Below, piece after piece: positions 6,761 to 26,655 of a stretch of 26,655 nt of DNA. The DNA is from Macrostomum lignano (Eukaryota). Numbering within the stretch: position 1 is the stretch's first letter; each line of letters begins with the position of its first letter. Both the position numbers and the translations under genes were made by a program. Location of the stretch: assembly GCA_002269645.1 (NCBI GenBank), contig NIVC01005086.1, forward strand, positions 1 through 26,655, in the 5' to 3' direction. Below the pieces are notes generated by a model, which made no database searches, had not been told where the DNA came from, and saw nothing but the letters and a program-made list of their open reading frames with translations.

Positions 6761-6861
6761 AACACGCTACCCTCCCCTGACAATGTCATGTCAACGTCAT
6801 ATCAATAATGTACAACAATTTTTAATACTTTTAAACAACGCGCGCTCATCTACTAACTATG

Positions 6862-8717
6862 CTACTGATTATAAGTAGCCTGTTCGTCCGACTTCAGTCG
6901 GGTTCGCTCGGTGGCATCGTCTGCGGAGCCCTGCGGCTGAGAAGTCACAGTCGACTCGGCGCCTGTAGCTTCGGGTTGCTGTTAAAATCAGACAGACATG
7001 TCATCCTTAGAGCTGGCTTATTATAACTTGACAAACCCAGTAAATTTTCAAACTTACATAATAAGCATAATCTCCTTCATCGTCCGTCTCTTTTGGCACG
7101 CATTTGCCGCAGCAGCAGCAGCAGCAGCAACAGAAACAGCAGCAGGTGAGTGCAAAGCACGCTACCAATAAAATCTGCAATGTTTTTAAAGAACATTAAC
7201 ATATGATTTAAACATTGGGCTGAAGTGGTGAGTCAATTAATTTAGCTAGAAGCTCATTTGCAATTTGAGAAATTCCCCTTGAACTCCCGGCCATGTGATC
7301 ATGAGAAATTCCCCTTGAACTTTTGGTCATCTGGGAAATTCCCTTTGAACTCTTAGCCATCTGATTATGAGAAATTCCCCTTGAACTCTTAGCCATCTGA
7401 TTATGAGAAATTCTCCTTGAACTCTTGGCCATCTGATCATGAGAAATTCCCCTTGAACTCTTGGCCATCTGATCATGAGAAATTCCCCTTCAACTCTTGG
7501 CCATCTGAGAAATCCCACTGGAACTCTTGGCCATCTGAGAAATTTCCACTTGAACTCTTCGTCATCTGAGAAATTCTCCTTGAACTCTTGGCCATCTGAT
7601 CATGAGAAATTCTCCTTGAACTCTTGGCCATCTGATCATGAGAAATTCTCCTTGAACTCTTGGCCATCTGATCATGAGAAATTCTCCTTGAACTCTTGGC
7701 CATCTGATCATGAGAAATTCTCCTTGAACTCTTCTTGGCTATATGAGAAATTCCCTGCATACTCTACTTTTAGCAATCAGAGAAATTCCCCTTGAACTTC
7801 TGGCCAGCATAAATTATATTTGAGAAATTCCCTATAAGTTCTTCGAACATCTAAAAATTCTGCTTGAGAACTTGACCATCTGGCAAAGAAAAAAAAATTT
7901 CAGAATTTTTTCTTACCTTGCAGCAGACATTGTCTAGCATAAAATATGTTGTGACATTGTCCTCGCCAATTTGTGATGCAATTTGCAAACCAACAGAGCC
8001 ATATTTATCATAGATGGCTTTCCTTTTCTCATCGCTAAGCACATGATTGGCTCTGTTGAGCTCTTTGATCTGCAAGGGTGGTGTGCAATACTGATATGTG
8101 CCATATTGTGTTTATAATTTATTATTATAAATTTAACTATAATGTCTTTTTCATACCTTGTCTGCAGCACTAGGATCTGGATTTTTGTCTGGGTGATATT
8201 GCAATGCCAACTAAAAAATATGAAAAATTTTCAACAAGTTATTAGGGATTAATGATAACATTGAATATCCATATAGGGGCCTAATATTTAGAGAATATAA
8301 ATAGCTACAAACCTTTCTGTAGGCCTTTTTAACCTGCTCTGGAGAGGCACCCTTTTCTAGTCCAAGAATTTGGTAGAGACTATCTCCACTTGTTCTGCAA
8401 TGTTTATATATGGTAATGAAGTTTTAATTGCTGTAAACAAAATGATAAAGTTTAAGTAACCAAAAGTGTAATTTTTATTATTAATAAACCATGCACCATC
8501 TTCAAAACTTCAGCAAAAAATATGAGTGACCAATAAAATATTATAAAACAGTAATAGTGCTAATGTCAATTATCAATTTAGTTTTAAATCTAGTAAATTA
8601 TTGTATCAAATCCATGATATTGCCGATCGGCGATTGCATGGATGGTTCTTGCACTTACGAAAATTTTCTTTCAGAGTTTGGCGGTTCAGAGCCCGAAGCA
8701 TTACTTGCACTGGCCAT
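6862..8717 (-). CDS. DNAJC5: DnaJ homolog subfamily C member 5 / cysteine string protein, 193 aa; complement(join(6862..6978,7058..7174,7917..8069,8157..8210,8313..8394,8659..8717))
   Basis: All five introns are GT-AG and the phases are consistent (582 nt). Translation: [108 protein letters not shown]..., with J-domain HPD, the cysteine string TCCCFCCCCCCCCGKC and a C-terminus ...TVTSQPQGSADDATERTRLKSDEQATYNQ*, all typical of CSP. Confidence 0.93.
7265..7833. repeat. 36-bp minisatellite GAGAAATTC(C/T)CCTTGAACTCTTGGCCATCTGATCAT, with ~29-30-bp truncated units, inside a Csp intron (7175-7916)
   Basis: Tandem units lying wholly within the GT-AG intron. Confidence 0.93.
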
Positions 8718-10056
8718 CTAAATATGTTAATGATTCGTTTGATGGGAGTGTAAAGATGGTAACAATAAAATATAAACAGTTCTAAAGCGTATTACGATTG
8801 ATTAATTTCTTAGCTATATTTCGAAGCTATATTTTAGTTTCGAAGCAAGAGGAGGTTAAAGGGAGAAATAAATAAATAGCTAAAGGGAAATACAACTCTC
8901 GCTATAGCTTGACACTGCTATAATCACTTTTACTTTTATCTTAAGCGCTCTCCTGGAACTCCTATTCCGTATTTTTAGCGAAGAGTCGAACTCGAACACA
9001 ATAAATGAATGAAATAAATAGCAAACTAAATTGGCAGAAACAATAGAGAAAACAAGTACAAAATGCAGTAGCTATTTGCACAAGATTATTAATGGAAGGA
9101 ATGCAAGTTTTATTTTCATTGATTTTGAGCATTATTCTTTAAGCAGCAACATAGAATCAATTCACTTTGGTACGCTTTGTTATTCCTACCACGACTTTTA
9201 ACGCGTAAATTTAACTTATCAACAAAAATACTTCCAATTTGGCCGGCCATTGCTCAAAAACTCTACTGTGCACAAGATGGTTAAAGATGCTTGCTTAAGA
9301 ATGCATCCAAACAGAGCCAAAGGTAAAAAACAATGAAAAATTAGCTATAGCTATTATATAGCTATAGCTAGCCTTGAATATAGCCTTGAAATCAGTGGCG
9401 CGTCCAAGGGGGGCCAGGGGGGCCTGGGCCCCCTGTTAGGCCATAGGCCCCCCTGTGCCCCCCCCCCCAATTTCAGTTCTGACTTCTGAACGTCAAATTT
9501 TTCAAAAAAAGTTGAAAAACCTTTTTTTTATAATTTTAATTTTAGAAACAATACTACTATACTAGAAGTTTTTACACAAGCAAAACTGTACATGGGTACA
9601 TTATTCTTTACTCTCTGATCTGATAGTATGGCAAATTTCGTTTCGTTTGTTTTTATAGTATCTGTCGGTGTTTTGGTTTTGTCTAACTTTAATTATAAAG
9701 TGCATCGCCTCTCAGACTTTATTGTTTTTATCTAACTGTTCAGTCTATATGGCTGTATCCTTCCTACCCCCCAACCCCCTCCCCCACGCGTATAGCCTAA
9801 CACTTGCACTGGGACAGGGAAAGGAGGGATAGGACAGACAGAAAGGGAAGGGAGAAGCGCGCTGATAAATGTACATTTGGACAGGGACAAAGAGTTAAAC
9901 CATCGTACATTCAGACAGTGTGTAAAAGACTACAGAGCATTGCCCCTCTGCCCCTTAAGATTTAAGTCACACTTTAGCTACTGCTCTCTTAAGTCTTAAG
10001 GTTCAAAAAAACGGAAATGTATTTTTAAGAATTGAATTAAAGAAGCCTGGCCAACA

Positions 10057-13000
10057 ATGCAGAGGCCTGATATTCGAAGTTTTTTAAAAAGACCTAGCTC
10101 AGACCCGCGAGAAGATGAAGGTCCAGGCGAAAAAACCGATAGCCAGGCGAAAAGGCATAAGGATCAACCAAGCGCCATCTCTACGATTGCGGATCAGGAG
10201 TCTGAACAGGATGCTCAACTGACTGGCTCTGAAACAAATTTTCCTGGCACTCCTGTTCTAGTTGAGACAGCTACCGCTGCCACTGCCACAGAGTCAGCCT
10301 CAGACAGTAGAACGATTGAGCAACCTTCTTCGAAGGCCCGTGTGATATTTCCCAGAATAAGGACGATCCACCCTTGTCAGCCATTTTTGCGGAACTACCC
10401 AAAATCAGTTGGAACTTCAGGCGGTAAGTGGACAGTTATTTACATAATACTGTTTGTGCTAATGGTTACTAGTGGCTAGTGCTAGTGGCTAAGGCTAGCT
10501 ATACTGATATAGACGTATTTTTTAAAAGTTATTTGTAAAAATCCTCCACAGGAACGGATAAGGCAAAGCAAAAGTCCCGTTCATTTCAATTCTCGTGGTT
10601 TGAGACTTACAAGTGGCTTGAGTATTCGCAAATGAAGGATTCTGCTTATTGCTTTCTCTGCCGCCACTTCGCGCCTCAATCTATGCAAGAAGAGCCATCT
10701 TTTACTACTCAGGGATTCCGCAACTGGAAAAATGCTCAGTGTCAGGATGCAGGCTTTAAAAAGCATGCCCGCTCTCATTGCCACTGTTTAGCAATGCAAG
10801 CATGGTGTGACTACAAAGTAATGAAAGACACTGAAGGAACTGTATTGAAACAGCTTGATGCTACGTACAAAGCTAAGGTAGCTGAGAACAGGCACTTCAT
10901 TAAGTGTGTAGGAGAAGTATTACTTCTTACAGCAACTCAAAACATCGCCCAAAGGGGGCATCGCGAGAATGATGAGCAAGTAAATCCTGGAAACTTCAAA
11001 GCATTATTGAAGCTGATTGGCAGGCACGACGAAATAATAAAGAAGAAGATATCTGAACAGAAGAAGAATGCAAAGTATACGAGTGACACAATTCAAAATG
11101 AAGTTATTAACATTCTGGCAGACATGGTCCGTGATGTTGTTGTAAACGACATCCAAGAAGCCAAATATTTTTCTGTGATTGTACGTAGATGAGGCCAAGG
11201 ATATTTCTAAGGTTGAAATGATCTCCTTAATCATTCGTTTCTACAAGCATTCAGAAGGAGTGCAGGAAGTCTTTATGGAATTTAAACCTGCTTCAGGACT
11301 ATCTGCCCAATCACTTGCTAACTCACTAGTAGAAAGCCTTCAGAAATATGGCCTAGACACCGGATTTCTAGTTGGCCAAGGCTATGATGGAGCCTCAGTG
11401 ATGAGCGGAGTTCATAATGGGCTCCAAAAGCTGATTCGAGACAAGTCGGAACTCGCAATTTACGTACACTGCTATGCACACTGCCTGAATCTGTCTTGTT
11501 GATGCTTGCAAATCAGTGCCCGAGATTGAGGACTTCTTTTCTCTTGTGCAGAAGCTCTACTGTTTTATGTAAAACTCAGTTGTTCATCCTTAGTTTATTG
11601 ACCACCAGAAGAAACTCTATGTTGGAAAGCCAGCCTTAGAGCTTCAGCGCCTCTCAGACACGAGATGGGCCTGCAGAGAGAAGGCGTGCAACAATGTAAC
11701 GATATATACCGATTTTTTTCGGCAGCAATTGCGTAAGCTGAAGCCGCGTAGCGGCTGAAGCTTAGTAGAGCAATTGCTGCCGAAAAAAATCGGTACATGT
11801 CATTATTGTACCTTTTGACTTCCCTTGTCTATGGCCCAGACATAGTGCGGATGCTGAGTATGAAATGCGATTGTTGCCGGAATGCGCTTTGAAAGGGTTG
11901 TAGAGATAATCAATCGTCTATGGCAAATTTAGTTGCTCTCTAAATGAAAGGGTTGTAGAGATAATTATCGTTTATGGCAAATTTAAAGGACAGTGAAGAC
12001 AGCTAGCCTGGCTGCCATGAGTTAATTCTCAAGTTGATTTTGAGCTTGAATTAATTCTCCTATTCGGAGTGCAAATAGGAAAAGTAGCTATGATTCGCTA
12101 CGCAAACATTCCTGGCGGAGAAATATGTGGACTCTCCACGGACGAGTTGGCTTTTGTCACCCGAGAGTCGAGCACGCGCTACGTTCTGGAGATGGACAAC
12201 CTCCAGCTTGTCTGGCTGCCTATGGGTCCAAAGTCACCAAGATTGACGACGATGCGGAATCCACCATCGAAAGTGTGACAACTGGGTCTGATAGAGGCGA
12301 GCTGATGAAAGCACCCGAGGGCGGCCAAGACCTGCCGAGAAGCCTCTGTGGTGGTCAGTTCCACAACTGCACATTCAACTTTTACGGAAAGTAAAACAAT
12401 TGATTCGATCGGTTTGTTCTTAAGAACTTTTTGTGACTATGAAACACTTTCGCCGTGTTGCTATTGTTGTTCCTTGTTTTGATAGCCAAATACATTCGTC
12501 TGAAATCCGGCAACAATCGAAAAAAGCCGACAAACAATTAAATTGTTACCGCAAGTATGAATGCCGGAAACCATAGACAAAAGGGAACAATATTCGTAAT
12601 CGTATTGGCGCGATTCTCTCCGTTTTAAAAGAAATTAAGGAGCAGGACTCCGGAGATTGTGTTGTTGAAGCCACTGGAATTTTAGCTCAGTTGACCCGAA
12701 GCTTCGTACTAAGGCTAGTTCTCATGTGCGAAATTCTGACTCGCACAAAGGCACTATCGGATTTCCTTCAACAAAAAGATTTAGACCTTGCTTCTGCTGT
12801 TGATTTGGCACAGTCAACAATCACCGAATTCCAAACTTTGCGCGACAGCAACGAATTCTTAGAGAAAGTATTTCTGGACTCCCAGCAGTTAGGTAATGAG
12901 TGGAATATACCTGAGCCAGAACCGAACAGACGAACAAAACGCCCAAATAAGCGCTTCGATCAGTTTGTAACTTTTTAAAGGGATCATGTCGCTCAGCGCA

Positions 13001-13559
13001 ACTCTGAATTTGGAGCAAACGGATTTCGAATTAATGTATATCTACCGGTGATCGACTGCCTATTGTCGGAAATGCGACGAAGATTTGACCATGAAACAGC
13101 TGTTCTCTATAAGGGAATTGGTTCTCTAAAGCCAAACTCGGACTGTTTTTTGGACGCTTCACAGCTGGAGGATTTAGGAGGCCTATAAAATGTGACCAAG
13201 AGTTCCTGAAACTTGAGGTCATTCAAGTAAAGCGTCTGATTGAGAGAAAGGGCGATGGCAGCTTGACTGATTTAAAAGCATTTGCTGAGATGTTGCACCC
13301 ATTCAGAGAGGTTTTCCCTGAGTTGTACAAGCTTCTCATCATATGCTTGACAATTCCAGTAACAACAGCATCAGCAGAGCGCAGTTTTTCCAAAATGCGC
13401 CTGATCAAGACGTACTTGAGAAGTCGAATGTCATCTTCTCGACTTTCGAATCTGGCTCTTTTGTCGATTGAAAACGAGCGAGCATCAATAATTGATCTTG
13501 ACTGTTTTGTTGATGAATTTGCGTCTGCCCATTCTAATAGGCGAATAAGTCTTACATGA
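10057..13559 (+). pseudogene. Decayed hAT transposase (ZMYM1-like: TTF-type Zn finger, DUF4371-type region, hAT C-terminal dimerisation domain)
   Basis: Intron 10424-10551 (GT-AG). Motifs SRSFQFSWFETYKWLEYS..DSAYCFLCRHF, SVIV/DEAKDIS, GQGYDGASVMSG, YVHCYAHCLNL, LSDTRW and PVTTASAERSFSKMRLIKTYLRS. Several frameshifts and stops, plus an 890-bp insertion. Confidence 0.92.
11696..12585 (+). mobile_element. 890-bp insertion in the transposase; possible non-autonomous Crypton (tyrosine recombinase) derivative
   Basis: Flanked by AACAAT (11690-11695, 12586-12591); removal restores REKACNNIRNRIGAILSVLKEI. Contains ORF remnants CGLSTDELAFVTRESSTRYV and GQFHNCTFNFYGK*, resembling a Crypton recombinase C-terminus. 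Insertion certain, family tentative. Confidence 0.6.
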
Positions 13560-14021
13560 TTTTATGACTTATTTTGCTCGCTAAGACAATTTACATTTGC
13601 TACGGCCACTTGACTAATGTATGTACATGTATAGTATTACAGTATATGTATGTTGCTTTTGCGTTTTTATTCTGTACATACTTCATTTATGTACGTTACA
13701 TTACTTGTCATTTTTCACTTCATTGTCATTGCTACTAATTGCAACCTGTTTCATGTATCGTTCAAAGGTATATGAATGTACGTGTATGCACATTGATCGA
13801 ATTAGCTAATTTGTTTTAAATTATGTATATATATCTATTAAATAATATGTATATATGCATGCATTCACGTTAAGTTCTGTTGTTATGTATGTATGGTGAT
13901 TGTGATGAAGTGGGTGGTAAAGTGTTACTGTAAATTCATATTCAAGTTCATTCTACGCTGACGTGTTTTCACTAAACCTATCATCGATCATCAAATGTAC
14001 TTTATGCACCATGCACGCATA

Positions 14022-14511: not shown

Positions 14512-17120
14512 TTCTTCTTCGGGCGTGCTCGGGCCAGGGCCCATGGCACCGGGCGTCAGATGGCGCCCGCCTTCCCGAGGAAGTTCAACACCGCGACGCA
14601 GTTCTCGAAAACTGCCGCGGGCTCCGGGCTTGGCCCCCAGAGGCGGCAGCGGTGTGATGTCAGGGCGGGGCAGGAGATCAGCAGATGGGCCGCCGTCTCC
14701 TCTCCATCGCCACAGAAGCGGCAGGTGGGGGCCACGTCAACGCCGATGGCGGCCTGGAAGCCCCGCAGGGCCGGGCAGCGGTCGGCGCGCAGCTGGCAGA
14801 TCAGCCGCTCCTGCCGCCGCGTGAGGTCGCTTGTCGGCTGAGGCGGCAGGCGGCCCGCCGTGCAGGCAAGGTGCCAGGCAAGCGAGCTCGTGCTCGCCGC
14901 CTCGGTGGCCGCCGCGTTGTAGATCTGGTGCCAGCGGGCGAGGCAGTAGCGGCGGACGGCAGCCTGCGCGGCAGCTAGCGGTACGGGCGCGGTGCCTTGC
15001 GCCAGCGTGGTGCCTTGCTTGGCGATCTCGTCCACGGCCTCGTTGCCTGGGATTCCCGCGTGGCCAGGCACCCACTGCAGGTGGACCGAGGTTCCCCGGG
15101 CCGCGAGGTCGGCGAGGCTGCCCCAGACGGCGTCGATCATGGTGGCGCCCGTCGACCCGGGGCCGGACGCGAGCGCGCTAAGCGCGCTCAGGGAGTCGGA
15201 GCAGATGCGGACCGGCGACAGCTCTGCCGGGTCCGGGGCCGCGAGCACCCACCGAAGGGCCTCAGCGATGGCCACTAACTCGGCGTGGAAGCTGGACGTC
15301 ACATGGCCAGCAGCGACGCACAGCGTCGTGTTGGGCTCGACCAGGACGCCACTGCCGCCGTCCAGGATGCCGTCCTTCGCCGCTCCGTCGGTCCAGATCA
15401 CGGTGCTGGCGGGCGGCAGGGCGACAAGTGTCTGCTGCGCCGCGGCTCTCCGGGCCTCCGGCAGGTCCCCCCGCGAGGTTGGGGAGGCCAACTGCAGCCC
15501 GAGGGTGACAGAGTCCAGAACAGCCCAGGGAGGTGTCGTCGGGATAGCGTGGACGGGCTCTCGCGGGAAGCCGCTCAGGCCCGCAGCGCTGCATACACTG
15601 GCCGCCGTCTCGCGCCAGCCGCGGGCGCTTTGGAGGCGGCGGCGCGGGCCGACGCTGGCCGCGCAGGCGCGCAGCGGGTTGTCATGCGGCAGCCGGAGGG
15701 CGCGCTCGTGGAGGAGGCCAGCGTGCATCTCCGCGCGGACTGCCATCGGCGGCAATCCAGCCTCGCGCTCCAGCACCTCCGACCTGGTGTTCCGTGGACA
15801 CCCGGTGATGATGCGCGCGCCCAGGCGCTGGGCCCGGTCCAGGTGGTCGATAGCTGTCCTGCAGGCCGTCGGCATCCAGGCGCCGGCAGCGTACTCCAGC
15901 ACCGGCCGCACATAGGCCGTGTAGAGCTGGCGCACGTCGCTCTGCTTGGCGCCCCAGTTGCTGCCAGACAGCGCCGCCAGAACGCCGCAGCGGGCGCGGG
16001 CGCGGCCGGCGACGTTGGCGGCGTGCGCCGTGAAGCTGAGCAGCCGGTCCAGGATGACGCCGAGGAAGCGCGGCTGGCGGTCCGTCGAGAGCGGGGCGTC
16101 GTTCAGCCGCAGACGCAGCTCACGGCTGGCCTCTCCGGCGGTGGTGGTGAACAGGGAAGCGGCGCACTTGTTCGGCGCCAGCTCCATCCGCCACTCGTTC
16201 GCCCAGTCGGAGACCGCGTCGATCGCAGCCTGCGCCTTCGTCTCGGCCTCTTCCACGGTCAGGCCTTGCACTGCGATGGCCAGGTCGTCGGCGTAGAGGA
16301 ACGGCGTGCAGTCGGACGGCAGGTGGTCAGGCAGGTCGTTGATGTACAGCGCAAAGAGCAGAGGGGCAAGGACACTCCCCTGTGGCAGGCCCTCGCGGAA
16401 GAGCCGCCAGCTGCTCAGCGCGCCGTCCACCCTGACGGCAGCGCGGCGATCGGCCAGGAAGCTGCTGACCCAGCGGACCCCGGCCGCTGGGATGCCGGCG
16501 TTGTGCAGCTTGTGCAGCAGGCCCTGCTTCCAGACGGTGTCGTACGCCCGCCGGAAGTCGAACAGGACGACGACCGTCCGCCTGGCGGGGGCCGCCTGGT
16601 GGCCGTCGCTGATGAGCTGGGTGAGCCGGGCAATCTGGTCCTCGGTGCTGCGCCGCTTGCGGAAGCCGGCTTGGGCGGGGTGCAGCAGGTGCCGGGACTC
16701 GGCCCACCAGTAGAGCCGCGCTTGAACCAGACGCTCGGCCAGCTTGGCCAGAGTGGAGGTAAGGGCAATCGGCCGGTATGAGCCGATCTCGTCGGCCGGC
16801 TTGCCCTTCTTGAGGATCGGCACGATGTGGGCACGGCGCCACGCCGCGGGGACCTCCCCCTGGGTCCAGGACGCGTTGATCAGCTGCAGGACCGCCCGGC
16901 GGCCAGCGGCACCGAGGTGCTGCAGATGTTCAGCGCAGATCTCATCGGGTCCTGGGGCCTTCCTGGCCGGGAGGGAGTGGAGAGCCCTGTCCAGCTCGCG
17001 GTGCGAGAACGGCTTTCCAAAGTCTCTGCTCCCAGGCTGTCGGCGCCGGCTCGCGAAACGCTGCTGCGGATGTTCTCGCGGCGGAGGTCTCGCGTCCTGC
17101 GGTCTTGCGGGAGGCGGCTG
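14512..17120 (-). mobile_element. 5'-truncated non-LTR retrotransposon (I-group-like, RT + RNase H + CCHC), nested in the hAT
   Basis: 14-bp TSD ACATGCATGCATTC (14498-14511, 17121-17134), ~35-nt 3'UTR, (GAA)n tail; much GC-richer than its flanks. Confidence 0.93.
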
Positions 17121-17132
17121 ACATGCATGCAT
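14556..17132 (-). CDS. Reverse transcriptase-RNase H-zinc knuckle ORF (858 aa) of the LINE; no endonuclease domain
   Basis: KAPGPD, YRPIALTS, QAGFR, GLPQGSVLAP, YADD, FLGV; RNase H IWTDG..ELVAI..SDS..WVPGHAGIPGNEAVD; C-terminal CRFCGDGEETAAHLLISC. Confidence 0.92.
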   Translation of the reverse strand: MHACQPPPARPQDARPPPREHPQQRFASRRRQPGSRDFGKPFSHRELDRALHSLPARKAPGPDEICAEHLQHLGAAGRRAVLQLINASWTQGEVPAAWRRAHIVPILKKGKPADEIGSYRPIALTSTLAKLAERLVQARLYWWAESRHLLHPAQAGFRKRRSTEDQIARLTQLISDGHQAAPARRTVVVLFDFRRAYDTVWKQGLLHKLHNAGIPAAGVRWVSSFLADRRAAVRVDGALSSWRLFREGLPQGSVLAPLLFALYINDLPDHLPSDCTPFLYADDLAIAVQGLTVEEAETKAQAAIDAVSDWANEWRMELAPNKCAASLFTTTAGEASRELRLRLNDAPLSTDRQPRFLGVILDRLLSFTAHAANVAGRARARCGVLAALSGSNWGAKQSDVRQLYTAYVRPVLEYAAGAWMPTACRTAIDHLDRAQRLGARIITGCPRNTRSEVLEREAGLPPMAVRAEMHAGLLHERALRLPHDNPLRACAASVGPRRRLQSARGWRETAASVCSAAGLSGFPREPVHAIPTTPPWAVLDSVTLGLQLASPTSRGDLPEARRAAAQQTLVALPPASTVIWTDGAAKDGILDGGSGVLVEPNTTLCVAAGHVTSSFHAELVAIAEALRWVLAAPDPAELSPVRICSDSLSALSALASGPGSTGATMIDAVWGSLADLAARGTSVHLQWVPGHAGIPGNEAVDEIAKQGTTLAQGTAPVPLAAAQAAVRRYCLARWHQIYNAAATEAASTSSLAWHLACTAGRLPPQPTSDLTRRQERLICQLRADRCPALRGFQAAIGVDVAPTCRFCGDGEETAAHLLISCPALTSHRCRLWGPSPEPAAVFENCVAVLNFLGKAGAI

Positions 17133-17607
17133 TCGTGTTTAAAGTCTTCCAATTACAAAACTAAACAACTTGACAAAGCAAAAAATATTCAAAAGCATTT
17201 TCTTGGGCAAAAAAACAAGAACCATTTAGTGATTTAGAATGTTCGTTTTTCTTAAATTAACTAAACAATTGCAATCATTCATTGCGAGGTATTTTTGGAT
17301 GTCATTTTTGCTTTTCGATGAAAATTTTCTCTTTACAATACTCGTAATTAAAAAACGTACACTCTATTTGAGATGTTGCCCCTTCAGTTTTTACTGGGCC
17401 CCAACTGGGCCCCCCCATCCTGAAACCTCTGGACGCGCCCCTGCTTGAAATACAATGCTTTAAACAATGAAACTGACAAAATCTTTTAACATTGATTTTT
17501 CAAATAACTGACTTGAGCTTCGGGATATATTTATAACAATTTCTTGTGAACAATTCTGCAGGCTACTCGTTTTTTAAAACGTTATTTAATTTGAATAAGA
17601 CTGTTAT

Positions 17608-18091: not shown

Positions 18092-18339
18092 CTCACGCAA
18101 GTAAGCGCAGAATTGGCACGCTGGGCGTAAATTGAGAAAACTACAGCGTTTTTTAATGCGCAGATCGTTTCTAAAACTAATTCTGATGTAAAAATATATT
18201 ACTACGTATCGCGCCAAATGTCGTTGATTTTTAGGCAGATTTGACGCAAAAAACGCAAATTATACTACTATCTGAAAAATGAAGTAAGTAGTATATGAAA
18301 ACGCTATTCTAAGCGTGATATACTTCAATATAGTATATA

Positions 18340-18600
18340 GTATATGTACATTAATCCATGTACTCGCATATGCACATTAATCCTATGTACTGCATTAATC
18401 CCTACATGTATCTATCTCAAATTGTATATGTACATGTCTACTTCTATGTCTATCCCCCCAATTCTACATGTACATTGTCAACTTGTACAGTGCATACTCT
18501 ACATGTACACTTGTACATTAAGCTATACTTCTATGACAATTTCTATATGTACAGTGTCCCACATTAATCCCCAATCTACACGACGGTCCGCGCTCTCTGC
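18340..18600. repeat. Low-complexity region rich in TACATGTA/TGTACA and ACATTAATCC motifs
   Basis: Four (A/G)CATTAATCC copies and many TACATGTA/TGTACA words. Confidence 0.5.
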
Positions 18601-19180
18601 GCGCTATTTGAATCGCCAACCCCACAAGATTACATGTACAATTCCAACTCGAAACACTACGTGTGTACAGTATGAGCAGAGGTGAGAATTGGTGTAGACG
18701 CGCTGTACAATCCCATCTACTACTATTAATAAATGAGTCAACTAACTGTGTAGCTCACATCGTATATAAACTATTTACAAAGATATATTTACAATAAATC
18801 AGTAGCATATTTCAGGAAATAATTTATGTACAGCATCACCAGCGAGTAGAATATACGGAAAATTTTACATTGTTTTTCAATAATTTTCTTTTCATAAATG
18901 ATTTTAAACAAGTTTGACACGCAAAATATGTACAATAGATTTTTACATTGGCAATTTCGCCGCATACAATACAAAAATGCTTTATGTACATTGACATGCA
19001 AATTATTGTACAACAAATAGATTTTTACTCTGATAATTTTAGCAATACAAAAATGTACATTTAATAGTCAGTCACAAGGACTACTACATTATTTATAACC
19101 ATAAGGCCTGCTGCAGGCCTCGTACACGCGTTTCGTCAGGACGCGCTGAAACGTCTTGTCCATACTAACAGTGTGTATGG

Positions 19181-19544
19181 GGGCCGTAGCCCAGCGGTAG
19201 CGCAGCTGCTCTGGTGTGCCAGCGACCCAGGCTCGATTCCAAGTGCAGTCACATTAATTTAGGGCTGAATTGGAATCTCGGCTTGGCTTCTGCTCGTGCA
19301 ATTAACGGCCTTGAGAGCCAACCCCCCCCCCCCAAGGCGCAGTGAAGTGTACATGCCTAACGATAAATAAAGTTAGGGCCGCTGTACACTCCTGTGTGAG
19401 TGTGTGCCTGCCTACGTATCCGCGCGCTTGTATGCCTGCTCAGGGGAGTCGGCGGAATGGGCAGTAATGCCTCTCGCCGGTTGTGTGCCTATGTCGCTTA
19501 AAGTGCGCCAGGGTGCACACAACCCCCCTGCCCCTAATAAAAAA
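19181..19544 (+). mobile_element. tRNA-derived SINE (364 bp) inserted in the last PolB exon
   Basis: A-box TAGCCCAGCGG (19187-19197), B-box-like GGCTCGATTCC (19230-19240), A-rich tail, 14-bp TSD AACAGTGTGTATGG (19167-19180, 19545-19558). Removal restores CTIHTVSMDKTFQRVLTKRVY. Confidence 0.9.
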
Positions 19545-21769
19545 AACAGTGTGTATGGTACAAGACGCCTTGTCGCGCCTGAACTGAAACTGCGGCAGCT
19601 GCAGAGAGCCACCGTGTAGGAGGGTGTTGCGCAAGTCATCGCTGCTCTCTCGTATCTCAGGGGTCAGGCGAATACCCTTACACTTCAGGACCTGGCTGGG
19701 GACACCGGCCGCATTCTCGACAATGTAAGTGTAGAGCTTGGGTCCCCCACTTACAAAGTCGGTCATCCGGCTGCCTGCGGGCACCTCATCGGTCCACATT
19801 CCGAGGCTCGTGCCATGGGGCGGCTCCCATTGGCCCTCGGAATCTCGGAATGCCGGTAAACGACCCTGTGTGGGAGAGAAAATAGGCAATTAGTTCCATA
19901 TGCCAAGTACGTAATCAATTCTAAAAGAATTTATCCAGCCATTACTTTCGAGTCGGTGTCGCAGCAAATGGCCCGTTCGCCGAGACCCTCCAAGGCCTCG
20001 TACAGGCGCAGCTGGGCCTGCGTGGTCGTAAAGACCCCGATTGGCACATTGGAGTAGCGGAACGGCCACTGATTAAAGTAGCGGTGCCGGTACTCCAGCA
20101 GCATAAACTCGCTGCCAATCGGTTCGCAGGCCTTGACTTTGAGGTTGGGGTCGGTCAGCCGGGCGAGCCAGTCCTCGTAGCTGGACACAATCTCGGTCGA
20201 TGTCAGGTCATCGTGCTGACAAAAATGGCCCCAGAGCCTGCGTGAAAAGATTTGGTTACTGTTAGTAGAAGAAATCGTTTACGAAACAAAATTTATGATT
20301 ACTTACGAATTCAAAAAGATTTTCGCTACAAAGCGAAGTCCAGGGTTGGGCTCGACCTTGTCCAGCGTGACGCCTTCCTTGGCGTAAAAATCGGCAATGT
20401 AGGCGGCCTTGTCTTCGTCTGACATGCCGGGGGAGCCGCTCGACTCGGCCTTCAACTTGAGGAAGGTGCTGACATAGTCGCTGAACAGGCCGGTCCGCTG
20501 CTCTGTCCAGTAGGCCAACGAATGCACAACCTGCAGTCGGTAGCCCAACTGGAAGGCTTTTCGCAGCTCCGGCGTTGCCCAGGTGCCAGTCAGCGCCCGC
20601 TCCTGGTCTGAGTGGTGGCAGTACTCGCCGCTGCACTGCTGCTGCTGCTCCATACAGGTGCGGCAAAGCCCAACAAAGAGCTTCTTCTACACCCTGTAGG
20701 GCAGCAGCAGAATATGCAAATCTGACGGCGGCAGCACCGTCACTTTGGAAATACCAAAGTAGCTGGCCAGCGCGTCAGAGTCGAGCGTCTGCGGCGTCGG
20801 ATGGTGCACCGGGTGGCCAATCGGGTATGGGTCTTTCGACTGCACCGTCGGGTACAGAGAGACCTGCCAGTTGAAATAAAACATTATTTTTCATAAACTG
20901 TATTTCACATTTTGCAAAATATTCTACTACATTAGTAGTATCACTACTCACCACATCCCGATATTTGAGCGCCTCAGTCTCACTGGCCACAGCATGCGGG
21001 ATGAAACACTCTACGCGGCCGCCGTAGAGCGCATCCTCCATCTTGAGCGGGGCGCGCAGATGGGCAGTTGCGGCAAGGAAATCGGCCTGCGACGCCAGTA
21101 CAGTGTCGTATTCATGCTCCCAAATGGCTCGAACACTGTAATTATTGCGCTCCAACTCGCGAGTGAACCACTCAGTCTCGTGGCGGATGTGGCTCAGAGG
21201 CTGCCGTTTGAGTGGGTGGACGACATCCTGATCGGGCATGCACTGCTCGCAGCCATGGTAGAAGCAGCCATGAAACTACAAAACAGTGTTGGTGGCCTCA
21301 TCGAAGCCGTCCACCTTGCGGCCGAGAATGACAGCCTCGCCGCCAGTCGAGTCGCACGTGCGCAGCCGCCCGCCAAATTCGGTGGCATTCAAATAGGCCA
21401 GCCACTTGCGCGCCTTGAACGACTGCTGGTCGGCCTGCCGGGCAATCACGCCGACCGAGTTGGGCTCCATAAATTTGGTGGTGAAAACGGCCGTTGCGAG
21501 GCTGGCAATTGTATTGGCCTGAACAAACGGTTCCAGGCCGTCACAAATTTCGCCAATTATCGCCCTGTACTTGATGCAGCCCTCGCGAAGCAGCACCGTG
21601 TCGCTCAAACAATAATCGAGATACTCCCGATTAAAGTTGAACAACTCGCCCTGTCGCGAGGCCAGCCAATTACAGATGGAGTCGTAGTCCTTGTTTGCCT
21701 TGCCGCCGTAATAGTCAATAGCCGGGTAGGGGCCCACGTAGTTCCAATTGGCCGGCTTGTTGAACTCGT

Positions 21770-22501
21770 CGTGGTTTTGTCTCGCATAGAGGCGCCTAAC
21801 CGCAGTACCCCTGTGAAACTTGTCTCTGCCTGGCCGAAAGCTTGTAATGAGTTAGTAGGCTGGGTTGGAGGGTAATAGTGGATCAGGAAGGGCTGTGGGT
21901 AGCTGTATAGGAAGGCAGGCCTATACCTGTTCCAGTTGGTGCTCTGACGGTCCCCCTCAACGGTGCCCTCTGAGCGAACAGCCAGTGACCCTATTAAAGC
22001 TGGAGTGTGCCAGAACCAGGACTGAGTCTGAGCAGGACGAGACCGTTGGCACGGTCACTATAGAAATGGCGGGTTGGCGAAGCAAAGGGTGAAACAGTTC
22101 CGGCGATTAGCCCTCCTGCCGCTTCAAAGATAAGAGACTGTCTGGCAAGAGTACCCGGGGTTTAGGCCCCGAGGAGGTTTTGTTTTTATTACCCGGGGAT
22201 GGTGGGCGGTCGGCCCCAGCACGGTTGCCACGGCTCTCGGCCTTCGGGCCAACCCTAATAGGCAAGGGGTCTATCTAACCTGGATTTTTTGGGCACGGGC
22301 TCCCTGACTGGTTCGTCGAACCGCTGTCACTGTCCCCCGGAGAGGTTTTTGATTTGTACTTGCCCAATTTACAGTCCTCTCATTCTAATTAGGATTTTAG
22401 TGTACATTAGTACACTCCCAATCTGGAACTGATATTTTCTCTAGTGGCGTAAGAGCCTATTAATTTGGCTGAGGCGCCGGAATCACTTATTTAGTTAGTT
22501 A
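21770..22501 (+). mobile_element. 732-bp non-coding retroposon-like insertion in PolB
   Basis: 11-bp direct repeat GTTGAACTCGT (21759-21769, 22502-22512) and a (TTAG)n right end. It interrupts KGTFP(H)-EFNKPANWNYVGPYP. Confidence 0.8.
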
Positions 22502-23236
22502 GTTGAACTCGTGGAAAGGTCCCCTTGGCCAGCTTTGTTACCAGCCCCAGAGCTTTGGGGAATTGCGCAAGCGGGATTGGTATATAGTTTAGCGAATCTT
22601 TAAATACCAATTTATCAACCGTCATGCACATTAGCCGGCTGCCCTGGAACAACACTTGGGGCCGCTTCTTGGCCAGGCCGTTGAGCAGAGCGCCAAGCAG
22701 TAGAAAAGAATCGTAGCCCGATGCATTGTGTGCGACAACGATAGCGCCGCCTCGGAATGTGGTGCTTAGCCAAGCGAAAAAAGCATTCAGCGAGGCCGGG
22801 CCCACAGCCACAAAGCCGGCCATTTGGTAGGCGCAGTCTGAGTGGCTGACGCAATTGGAGAATTCCTCCCCCAGATCGCGGCTAATCAGACAATTGGCAG
22901 TGCTATGCAGGCCATTGCAGAGGCGGCAAGTCTCGCGCGGAAATGCCCGGCCGGAACAGGTCTCGCAGCACGTGACGGCAGTCACCAGGTGCACATGATG
23001 CTGCTTCTCCTCATCCCGTACGAGCGTACGGGGCAGTTGAAGCCTTCACTTTGGGAGCCTTGACGTAGCACAAATGCGAGCCGGCCTCGTCATACTGTTT
23101 ACACAGTGGGCACTTGACATGGCCGCACTTGTGCTCCGGCTCCTTTTGGCCCACTTTTAATTCCTCCAAATAGTTGCATTTGGGGCAGACGCTGATGGAG
23201 CTACAGCGAGACCGCCCCGCCCGGTTTTTCCGGTGG

Positions 23237-23580
23237 TGATTAATAATAATGATTAATGATTAATGATTAATGATTAATGATTAATGATTAATGATTAATG
23301 ATTAATGATTAATGATTAATGATTAATGATTAATGATTAATGATTAATGATTAATGATTAACGATTAATGATTAATAATAATGATTAATGATTAATGATT
23401 AATGATTAATGATTAATGATTAATGATTAATGATTAATGATTAATGATTAATGATTAATGATTAATAATAATGATTAATGATTAATGATTAATGATTAAT
23501 GATTAATGATTAATGATTAATAATAATGATTAATGATTAATGATTAATGATTAATGATTAATGATTAATGATTAATGATT
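23237..23580. repeat. 7-bp satellite (TAATGAT)n, ~47-49 units, with occasional TAATAATAATGAT variants, inside a PolB exon
   Basis: Near-perfect array; PolB coding frames run into it from both sides. Confidence 0.97.
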
Positions 23581-24784
23581 GTAACAATTCAGCCCGCAGT
23601 CAGCGCAGCGCTTGTAGTCGCGCCGCAGGCTCTTGCAGTCGGTGCCGGGCACTTTGCATTGAGGGCAGGTGTTGGCACACTTGTGCTCTCTAGACTCGCA
23701 GTCGTACGCCTGCTGGCAGCGGTCGCAATAGCGGCGGGCACCGAAAAACGGCGGCACCTTGCACACCGCGGTAAAGTGCTCGCCAATCAGGTGCAAATTG
23801 AGCACTGTGCTGCCAGGGAGGGCATACACACATGTGTTGCCCTCCTCGGCGCTGTATATACGAGCGCCGAAATCTCGGCCGGGCGACTGAGCATTGAGGG
23901 CCGCGAGCAGTTGCGGGAGCACATCGACCCCGAAAGGCCCGGCCTGTGCGATGGTTGATAAAGACTAAAACATTTGTATATTAATAAAAATATAAATTAA
24001 AATGCGCAAGATAATTTTTACTCACCGAATACGGATTGGCAGAAATTTGTAGTTCCCCAGTCAGCCTCGTCTGCAGCGGGGAGTCGGCTTTGATGGTCCG
24101 CCAAGTCTGCTCGGTGATGGCCTTGGCCTGCATGTCCGCGAAAGCCTTGGCCACCACTAGCGCCCTGATGAGGCAACGCTTTTCGCTGTTGGCGATGACA
24201 ACATAGCTGTTGCCCATAGCGTGCCTGGCCTGAATGTGCTTCTCCGCCGCATCTAGGCTGCCGCAGCCACCTCGCGAGACCCAGGCCTTGAGCAAAAACA
24301 ATTTAAAGTTGTTGCCCAAGACACTGGAGTCCGACTGCAGAATCTTGTTAATGTGCTTGAAAACAAGCTCTGCAGTGAAGTCGCGGACCGGTGGGACACT
24401 GATGGTCAACATCATGTTGTCCGCCGACAGCTTAGCTGCGACGAAATCGTTTGCATGTAGGTCCGCGCAGAGGGTTGCTATTACCCTAGCGAATGTGTCT
24501 CGAATATCGGTAGTATCTGCTGCTGCTGCAGCTGCTGCGGTGAGTGATACCACATACTCATACCCTGCGGCTCTAAATTTAGGCAGGGCTTTCGCCCCGC
24601 CAAGACGCGCAATGAAGCCTGAAAAAATTGAGGGTTTGAAATTAGAATTGCGAGAGGGCGGCGGCGGCGGTGAATGACTCATGAAATAAAATCAACTCCT
24701 TACCATCGCCTTCGACAGTGTCGGGCTGGGGCGGGGTTGAAATTGAGCCAAATCTGCAATTAAAATGTGCATGGCGACTAAAAT

Positions 24785-25200
24785 TCTGACCGCTTCGAAT
24801 TTTTAAAACTGTCAAAAATTTTTGATTTATTGCCCTGCTGCAGCAGCAATTTTATCGCTCCACCCCCAAGCAACAAAAATCGGCGAGTTGTAAAACTCGG
24901 CACGTTCCAACACGCAGCAACAAAAGTAATGTGGGGTTGATTGACCCCGCTTCGAATTTTAGGCTGTCAAAATGTTTGATTGATGATCCTCTGATAACAC
25001 AGATCCTGCAGCAGCAGCCATTGTAAAATTTAAGAAAACCCACAATCGGCACGTGTCTCCATTGCTTCGTACCCCTCCTTGACACCTAGCAACAATACCA
25101 CGCGGCCGCTTTTGGATTTTTAAAGCTGTCATAAATGTCTGATTAATAACCCTCACTGTAGCAACCAAGTTTTATTGCCGCCAAACCCCTACTATCAATG
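24785..25200. repeat. Three degenerate ~155-160-bp repeats
   Basis: Shared starts such as GACC(CC)GCTTCGAATTTT(T)A...CTGTCAAAA...TGATT near 24788, 24943 and 25110. Confidence 0.55.
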
Positions 25201-25389
25201 CAGCGGTGATTACATCATCATGCTGAGCCCAAAAATCGGGGTTGATTTTATCACTGCCAGAAAACCTGCCCGCCCGCTCCTCTCTAGTTCAAGGATTAGT
25301 CATACAGCCCCTGGAATTTTATGACTATCCTTTACAGGCATTACCCAACTATACAATTTCTATACTGCGGATATTCTCCAAAACTCTGA

Positions 25390-25910
25390 TATTTCAATAG
25401 GCCTGATTGAGAAATCCAAATAAATCTAAAGCAAAAGCAGTTTCCTCCATTTACTTCAATACGATATCGATGGCAGGAGTAGCTACAGCCTGAATTCAGA
25501 AATTTTAAGCCAAATCCAATATCCTAAAAATGGTCTGTCGGTAAGTGTGTGATCGATTTTTTCAATAAGCGTGAATTTAGAGTTTGTAAATCACACGAAT
25601 ACAAATGAATGCTGAACCAAAAGCAGTTTCCTCCCTTTATTTCAATCTGCGACAGACAGTCCGAAGTCCGAATCCGAATTTCAATAAGCTGAATTTAGAG
25701 TTTGCGAAAGCAACTCTGAATGCGAAGGGTGAAAAGCAGTTTTACAGTGGGCCTATATATTATTTCAATAAGCCTGATTTTGAGTTTGCGAAAGCCAAAT
25801 GAATGCCAAAGATGAAAAAGCACTTTTTACATACAGAGAATAGCCCTATCTTTTTTCAATAATCCCGAATTTAGAGTTTCGTAAAAGATAAAGATGAAAA
25901 AGAAATTTCT
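25390..25910. repeat. Degenerate ~85-120-bp repeats, ~5-6 copies
   Basis: Recurring TTTCAATAAGC(C)TGA(A/T)TTT(A/G)GAGTTTG...GAATGC...AAAAGCAGTTT blocks. Confidence 0.65.
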
Positions 25911-25968
25911 ACACAGACTTGCAAGACTCACCTAGCTGTCGTCCCCTCTTTGCGGCCGGAGGCTGTGA

Positions 25969-26655
25969 CTGCTGCTGCTGTTGTTGTTGTGAGTGCGGAG
26001 TGCAGCCGTCTAGAGCGGGATCCAATCGATCCACACCAGGAGCCGCGCCACCAGGTTCCCATCGGCTAGGTCTTTCAGATCGCAAATGCTGTTCTGTCTT
26101 CGGCGACATCGGTCGCAGGGCAGTGGACCAGGTGGAATTGGTCTACCTCGAGCCCGCAAAGCCTGCACTCGGCCAGCTGAGCTTTGCCGATGCGCTTAGC
26201 GTAATAGGCCGAGGGGGCAGTGTCCAGCTCTCACCTGCGCAACGAGGACTTGCTCTCGCCGGCTGCCGTTATGGTGCGTGATGCGTCCTTGGTAAGTCTC
26301 CTTCAGATGGCCGGTCAGGTCCGGAAGGTATTCGAGCCGGGTAGATAAACTGCTTGGCTGCTTCGAGCGAGATGGCCACTTGGGCTTGTTCCAGAAGAGC
26401 TGCGGCTTTGGCCTCGCGATCGACGAACTCATTACCAGCCACGCCAGCATGGCCGGGAATCGACTGGATCGTGAGAACGCAACGGCCAGCGCTTGCGAAG
26501 AAGAGCCTTTAGGTCTTCGATAACGCGTTAGTGGTGGTCGGTCGGCTATCAGCGCTCTGACGGCCGCCTGGCTATCGTGAGGAGGGCGGCGGTGCCAATG
26601 TCCTGCTGAATGACATCCACGACAGCACCCGGAGCGCGCGGAGCTCGGTTTCGAA
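25969..26655 (-). mobile_element. 3' end of a second, decayed RNase H-containing LINE, continuing past the right edge
   Basis: Frameshifted IQSIPGHAGVAGNEFVDREAKAA (RNase H), QVRAGHCPL, CRLCGLEVDQFHLVHCPA (CCHC knuckle), stop at 26075-26077, then a (CAA)n(CAG)n tail at ~25969-25990. Confidence 0.8.

Follow-up and report, generated by a model that had tools for sequence, protein, structure and literature searches.

A Polinton-type DNA polymerase split by six spliceosomal introns in a decayed, inverted-repeat element of Macrostomum lignano

How does a virus-type DNA replicase come to be written in spliceosomal exons? The question is posed by a stretch of 26,655 nucleotides from the flatworm Macrostomum lignano (contig NIVC01005086.1, positions 1 to 26,655 of the forward strand; we call the whole of it the window), in which a preliminary description had placed a protein-primed DNA polymerase (pPolB) of the kind known from Polintons, or Mavericks, and had taken it for either an intron-rich Polinton lineage or a formerly domesticated polymerase. 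The answer that we consider likely is that the gene belongs to a decayed element of about 9 kb, bounded by terminal inverted repeats, which carries a six-intron Polinton-type pPolB and no integrase or virion gene that we could see; such an element probably copies itself and is probably inserted by an integrase borrowed from Polintons.

The introns come first, since the reading frame exists only once they are removed. Five of them, of 85, 82, 88, 69 and 84 nt, had been proposed, and these are now confirmed together with a sixth upstream (Table 1). Their sizes, AT-richness and YAG acceptors were borne out (in the window copy, G+C content is 0.24-0.44 in introns 1-5 against about 0.55-0.6 in exons), and the translation phases of the pPolB pieces match across them. 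The donors read GT(A/G)AG as described, that of the fifth (intron 5) being non-canonical in this copy. The further intron predicted upstream was found at 25931-24754 (1,178 nt, GT..AG), and the likeness in size to host Csp introns also holds, the DnaJ/Csp introns measuring 102, 87 and 79 nt with one more of about 740 nt. Two of the initial claims stand in part. The joins restore conserved motifs at introns 3-5, which lie in the catalytic motifs, but not at introns 1-2, in the N-terminal part. Of the branch-like words seen in three introns, that of intron 4 sits at -30; that of intron 3 is an unlikely branch point because it lies 74 nt from the acceptor. The window copy itself is a pseudogene: its reading frame is broken by three insertions, one frameshift and two stops, and a retroelement sits in the first exon. 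Its element ends at 18201, and the remainder, including the other end, is carried by a near-identical twin contig (C1001).

What kind of polymerase is it? Two pieces match Pfam DNA_pol_B_2 (PF03175; E 2.7e-5 and 4.5e-10), the very check that had been proposed. A profile of 28 homologues finds phi29 polymerase at E 4.6e-9 and the Vsr of E. coli at E 3e-4, and a model of a database protein (mean pLDDT 73.8) has phi29 polymerase as its best solved match and adintovirus PolB as its best viral one. Profile, Pfam and structural matches thus uphold the Polinton-type identity. The same model contains two N-terminal folded domains of the type expected for a terminal protein and a vOTU, names that we borrow from the domain order given in the accessible text of PMC11161782. 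The database proteins of the host, 95-99% identical, are automatic spliced gene models named 'DNA-directed DNA polymerase'; the best protein matches outside the host are 24-35% identical.

The introns are not a peculiarity of one broken copy. A single pPolB exon has 127 genomic matches, the leading 31 of which (86-100% identity) form family A and another 45 (67-70%) family B, both counted by hand. In family A, introns are kept in every copy with a locatable junction (introns 3, 4 and 5 in 27, 28 and 27 of 30 loci), and no copy lacking an intron was found among those examined. Of the 257 introns located in 26 copies of A and 27 of B, 248 have GT..AG ends, and the six intron positions are identical in the two families. 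Intron 1 carries a CTRAY word in 19/19 A copies and 23/23 B copies. Intron lengths vary freely, with up to 18 distinct values (for example 69-85, 175-341 and 487-1051 nt), whereas exon lengths are nearly fixed across copies; the same intron aligns between A and B at about 61-67% identity. Open frames of 867-873 aa were considered as intronless retrocopies and rejected, as they read through an in-frame intron 3 of 81 or 87 nt. Intron 3 of family A has a length divisible by three in 13 of 24 copies, and several long frames pass through it without a stop; its retention would add about 27 residues within motif A.

The exons, meanwhile, are under purifying selection. We computed the ratio of nonsynonymous to synonymous substitution (dN/dS) pairwise and exon by exon between natural copies, dropping pairs with stops. 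The median is 0.137 within family A (171 pairs with dS>0.01, of 175 usable and 325 in all), 0.103 within family B (230 such pairs, of 241 usable and 351 in all) and 0.117 between the two (50 such pairs, of 61 usable and 64 in all). Between A and B, dS is about 2.4, so that synonymous sites are saturated.

Splicing itself can be followed in assembled contigs of sequencing runs that are probably RNA. Along one copy of family A, the contigs from runs X11 and X12 jump 77, 74, 81 and 75 nt with CT..AC ends, and at intron 2 they jump about 82 nt with one unmatched letter. Along a B copy, contigs of X11, X13 and X15 jump 83, 69 and 730 nt, again with CT..AC ends (at least three joints). None of these joints occurs in the DNA run X2, and none in the six contigs of X17, a run from a different study. 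Removal of the introns by the host spliceosome is therefore supported for the family, not for the window copy. With the same six sites in both families, saturated dS, dN/dS of 0.10-0.14 and joints in probable RNA, the earlier notion of a long adaptation to splicing gains support: the evidence favours introns that are old and conserved.

Introns 3, 4 and 5 interrupt polymerase motifs A, B and C, respectively. By conservation, the windows around their junctions fall within the top 6.1%, 0.5% and 5.4%; all 28 homologues are continuous there. The binomial chance of three of six introns falling in the top 6% is 0.004, for a test devised after the pattern was seen. In motif A, the Val-Ser codons already spell the donor word GTAAG in five intronless relatives; no comparable lead was found for motifs B and C. 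Since each of these motifs is broken by an intron, any active polymerase would need splicing. Introns in such essential motifs may simply be hard to lose, or they may act as a splicing gate.

Where did the gene come from? Among 82 viral and metagenomic relatives (25-38% identity), 42 have the VSR domain and motifs A-C in one open frame; the others, taken as a set and not inspected one by one, are cut by contig ends, broken, or lack a motif pattern. None showed an intron after motif B or C, and several relatives carry integrase, ATPase and capsid genes. Since 42 relatives have a single open frame, several of them beside such genes, the ancestor was very likely an intronless full Polinton. In a tree of 76 sequences (416 columns, FastTree, midpoint root), A and B group together (support 1.0) and lie some 2.3 substitutions per site away from every relative; the tree points to no donor. 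Two metagenomic contigs (L313, L316), AT-rich and 7.7-8.0 kb long, have terminal inverted repeats and an intronless VSR-type pPolB; three frames have no integrase or capsid match, and these contigs may be a free, capsid-less counterpart.

We delimited the element by comparing copies. Its inverted repeats measure about 0.2-1.4 kb and its ends read 5'-ACTACGT in family A and 5'-ACTACTA in family B, hence ACTAC...GTAGT overall. The scan for further ends required ACTAC, a motif that first came from unbiased repeat mapping. Exact 6-bp target duplications next to ACTAC ends define 45 elements in 90 stretches, at 43 different sites, and all 45 have ACTACGT or ACTACTA ends. A pPolB is present in 26 of them: 22 measure 8.7-9.9 kb in stretches mostly 10 kb long, a bias against long elements, two are shorter, and two longer ones contain nested inserts. 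For a 28-nt core of the A end there are 152 occurrences, against none for a control. Candidates for ends were scored in 40 of 216 and 40 of 272 cases, and end motifs were listed for 100 of the 152 occurrences.

What else do these elements carry? With gene queries from resident and outside Polintons, 72 stretches yielded no integrase (four queries), no packaging ATPase and no minor capsid protein; major capsid and protease matches occurred in one stretch, in flanks outside the element, which lies in the capsid gene of another Polinton. PC4 was found in 31 of the 72, dUTPase in nine and an orphan frame in 15. PC4 exceeds the Pfam cut-off in an A subfamily (E 1.5e-6), and among 107 short frames from five elements only PC4 and dUTPase do so. 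The orphan, an acidic frame of 336 aa (L146:7209-8219), adjoins PC4 in part of family B; it has no Pfam match above cut-off and no PDB match below E 0.85, and its five matches are all in the host. A P-element transposase (L207/L236) and a mariner (L230) were considered as element genes and discarded, both being nested inserts. One 14.4-kb element with ACTAC ends (C126) has two long frames of 760 and 451 aa (L218:4675-9375), probably a nested insert. One family-B element (L086, G000:C2932) sits within the capsid gene of a full-size Polinton. At G000:C362:496222-525239, end motifs recur every ~9.86 kb in a single orientation, which suggests tandem copies, and at G000:C1176 and C1753 a third PC4 type (37-38% to family B) occurs in tandem-like clusters beside family A fragments.

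The claim of an intron-rich Polinton lineage has thus to be divided. Its first half, a Polinton-type pPolB with old, spliced introns, stands; its second does not, as the element measures about 9 kb, its ends read ACTAC, and genes for integrase, capsid, ATPase and protease are not seen in it. In operation it resembles a Polinton replicon, yet it falls short of a full Polinton.

Full-size Polintons of 14-18 kb are, for their part, abundant in the host genome, with 73 capsid matches, at least 146 matches to one resident integrase (144 of 2,313 candidates scored) and polymerase frames of up to 1,478 aa that are intronless in those examined. A Pox_A32 search of the genome gave no match and is uninformative, as resident Polintons carry P-loop ATPase frames. 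All eight resident Polintons with both ends mapped read AGTAG...CTACT, one more family with one end mapped reads AGTAG, and exact 6-bp duplications flank three of the eight. The VSR motif is missing from the resident pPolBs, and the one gene that resident Polintons and the element have in related form is PC4 (31%). Because their polymerases have no detectable similarity to that of the element, resident Polintons can be its helpers but not its parent. A decayed, apparently intronless VSR-type pPolB does occur in the host (G000:C234:57086-59396); it shares 31% identity with family A and runs through motif A without a break.

A further class of elements has the same ends and no polymerase. These 19 are mostly non-coding, have 6-bp duplications, and many are near-complete palindromes. 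Non-coding elements L200, L202, L205, L226-L229 and L231, all in G000, are palindromic over almost their whole 7.8-9.9 kb and have exact 6-bp duplications; they form a separate family, 94-98% alike, in which assembly errors inside the hairpins are possible. End identity is also higher within elements than between them (0.995 against 0.755 in family B, 0.968 against 0.885 in family A).

To explain these results we propose that a gene with six introns, kept at common sites in A and B while its exons stay under purifying selection, is spliced by the host (at the family level, in contigs of runs guessed to be RNA) into a protein with a predicted terminal protein, vOTU, Cys-rich region, exonuclease, VSR-like domain and palm. 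To judge from its domains and from known pPolB chemistry, this protein would prime on the 3-nt-periodic ends and copy a linear form by strand displacement, a reading that also draws on what PMC11161782 and PMC8097293 say of the terminal protein and of jump-back ends. In some subfamilies a PC4-like single-strand binding protein and a dUTPase may serve as replication helpers, and the equalised ends and palindromic non-coding elements would be by-products of this replication. Insertion leaves the exact 6-bp duplication, and the enzyme would be a resident Polinton integrase acting in trans; borrowing is likely because no integrase or capsid gene is seen in the element. Intron gain would have followed the settling of the lineage in its host. 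More tentatively, we picture a nuclear, integrating, plasmid-like Polinton satellite that might have abandoned integrase and capsid and be confined to replication, with an end motif of its own, non-coding palindromic parasites, a ceiling of about 10 kb and host introns in all three catalytic motifs of its polymerase, so that replication is gated by splicing.

Several observations weigh against this proposal. The end motifs differ, so that a helper would need to accept another end, and none of five resident pPolBs was detected with the family-A frame at E<10. The copy pairs behind the dN/dS medians are not independent, and copies whose four internal exons are all open and in phase number just 4 of 13 in family A and 7 of 17 in family B, the others showing decay or assembly error. 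The runs with splice joints all come from one study and their RNA nature is guessed; each joint rests on one or two contigs with a short side of 22-48 nt, and the same runs also cover the introns unspliced. For the window copy, with its far end taken from the twin contig, no target duplication common to both ends was seen. Finally, since sampling covered part of the genome, it may have passed over a rare larger element with ACTAC ends or one whose integrase is split by introns.

An alternative is a segmented Polinton, in which the integrase, and perhaps the capsid genes too, would reside in an unseen partner with ACTAC ends and might likewise be interrupted by introns. A distinct end motif would suit a dedicated integrase, same-ended elements do differ in cargo (PC4, dUTPase and the orphan frame), and 15 of 31 facing end pairs lie 8.9-9.9 kb apart (hand count over the first 100 listed motifs), which fits a packaging limit. 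We nevertheless think it unlikely, as about 36 more same-ended stretches proved to be non-coding palindromes, polymerase copies or a nested P element or mariner, with no integrase, capsid or ATPase match. The two long frames of the 14.4-kb element have no Pfam match.

Could the element instead be self-sufficient, its VSR-like nuclease domain or the orphan frame cutting the target and the polymerase filling the gap? The domain is there, as the Vsr profile match indicates, and an integrase gene is not seen in the elements. The chances of this are slim: VSR-bearing relatives adjoin an ordinary integrase, as they also do in the accessible text of PMC10748475; the orphan frame gives no DDE match, had relatives only in the host as far as candidates were scored, and does not occur in family A; and the exact 6-bp duplications equal those of resident Polintons. 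Slimmer still are those of passive debris left when an ordinary full Polinton, rich in introns, suffered internal deletions, the idea nearest to the initial interpretation. Elements with the same ends do often include deleted and fold-back derivatives, and the decayed VSR-type pPolB lies on contig C234, but the compact plan is common to two families whose dS is saturated, at dN/dS near 0.1, which weakens this idea because passive debris would escape purifying selection; no larger parent was found in the sampled stretches. As for a domesticated host polymerase gene amplified later, its short introns are host-like, but we give it almost no credence against 127 genomic matches, dozens of dispersed copies with their own inverted repeats (45 elements having their own target duplication) and no sign of a single conserved locus.

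A borrowed-integrase element that replicates itself would show a virus-type replicase becoming, in an animal, a selfish element that bears introns and is kept by vertical descent, a change that parallels within the nucleus the passage of Polintons to linear plasmids. It would also offer a dated case of six intron gains, three of them in catalytic motifs, in a gene whose relatives are intronless, and it suggests a three-tier system within one laboratory animal: full Polinton, polymerase-only element and non-coding palindromes. Helper dependence and Polinton replication intermediates could then be sought in natural material. Such elements would escape any survey that requires capsid and integrase along with long open frames. 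In the literature searched, with Repbase, Dfam and subscription papers outside the search, we found neither the element described nor any conserved spliceosomal introns in the polymerase of an animal Polinton.

The window holds other features besides. A host DnaJ/Csp-like gene (6860-8700, minus strand) has a 36-nt tandem array in its long intron and another downstream. A broken hAT-type transposon (10036-13560, plus strand) gives DUF4371 and hAT dimerisation matches, a non-LTR retroelement frame (14556-17138, minus strand) encodes 860 aa, is GC-rich and has reverse transcriptase and RNase H, and a fold-back element (1029-2203), with arms of 210 and 135 nt that are 96% complementary, lies within a 22-nt satellite.

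Table 1. Parts of the polymerase element in the window, in order of position.
Feature	Position	Strand	Remarks
Terminal inverted repeat, element end downstream of pPolB gene	18201..18740	.	starts ACTACGTA on + strand
Last exon, past motif C to stop codon, insertion-interrupted	19089..19865	-	
Insertion of ~370 nt, short direct repeat at ends	19181..19549	.	among family-A copies, elsewhere only in twin contig
Intron 5, 84 nt, phase 2, directly past DTD of motif C	19866..19949	-	non-canonical donor here; family splice joint
Exon joining motif B to motif C	19950..20237	-	288 nt in almost every A copy
Intron 4, 69 nt, phase 2, within motif B	20238..20306	-	branch-like word at -30; family splice joint
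Palm-domain exon	20307..20863	-	PF03175 E 4.5e-10; one in-frame stop here
Intron 3, 88 nt, phase 0, within motif A	20864..20951	-	family splice joints
Large exon: Cys-rich region, exonuclease, VSR-like domain	20952..23943	-	two insertions, frameshift near 23010-23045, in-frame stop
Insertion of ~735 nt, short direct repeat at ends	21770..22505	.	no Pfam match in the single frame tested
Tandem array, 7-nt unit, ~50 copies, within large exon	23237..23580	.	
Intron 2, 82 nt, phase 0	23944..24025	-	family-B equivalent 175-341 nt
Exon: predicted terminal-protein domain and start of predicted vOTU domain	24026..24618	-	from model; domain names inferred from accessible text of PMC11161782
Intron 1, 85 nt, phase 1	24619..24703	-	family splice joints
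Small exon, 50 nt here	24704..24753	-	45 nt in B; two of the A copies have 51 nt
Intron 0, 1,178 nt, GT..AG	24754..25931	-	family-B equivalent (730 nt) skipped in probable RNA contigs
First coding exon remnant, basic, Gln-rich	25932..25995	-	start displaced by adjoining insertion
RNase H-containing retroelement fragment, inserted in first exon	26009..26655	-	start approximate

How, then, does the element compare with known systems? With Polintons/Mavericks (Eupolintoviridae) it shares a PF03175-type pPolB with VSR-like insert, terminal inverted repeats, the 6-bp target duplication and 3-nt-periodic ends, as well as a PC4-like gene also present in the resident Polintons. A VSR-bearing pPolB group is described for Polintons of molluscs and a marine nematode in the accessible part of PMC10748475. 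Intact vertebrate Mavericks are intronless, with no introns reported in the portion of PMC8097293 available, in contrast to the six spliceosomal introns here. The same portion offers a precedent for ends starting with AC in the Mavericks of Monopterus albus, although those are a dinucleotide repeat, (AC)3A, in 14 defective copies. Polintons moreover measure 13-25 kb against about 9 kb here, have the integrase, capsid, ATPase and protease genes that we do not see, and end in 5'-AGTAG or AGAGAG as opposed to 5'-ACTAC.

Yeast cytoplasmic linear plasmids of the pGKL type are free, are not known to contain introns and have transcription genes of their own. The present element is by contrast chromosomal and spliced, and it leaves target duplications. 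What the two have in common, going by the accessible text of PMC11161782, is descent from Polintons with loss of the virion module, and a fused terminal protein-vOTU-exonuclease-palm polymerase. Ginger1 DNA transposons likewise have an enzyme gene with spliceosomal introns, one to four of them, but theirs is a cut-and-paste transposase with TGT ends and 4-bp targets and no polymerase (PMC2836005, part of text). The eupolintoviral elements of dinoflagellates also show spliceosomal-type introns within Polinton-like elements. These are mobile introners, mostly acquired after integration according to the accessible part of PMC12166617, whereas the six introns described here are fixed in two deeply split families, differ in sequence between them and have been carried through repeated insertions.

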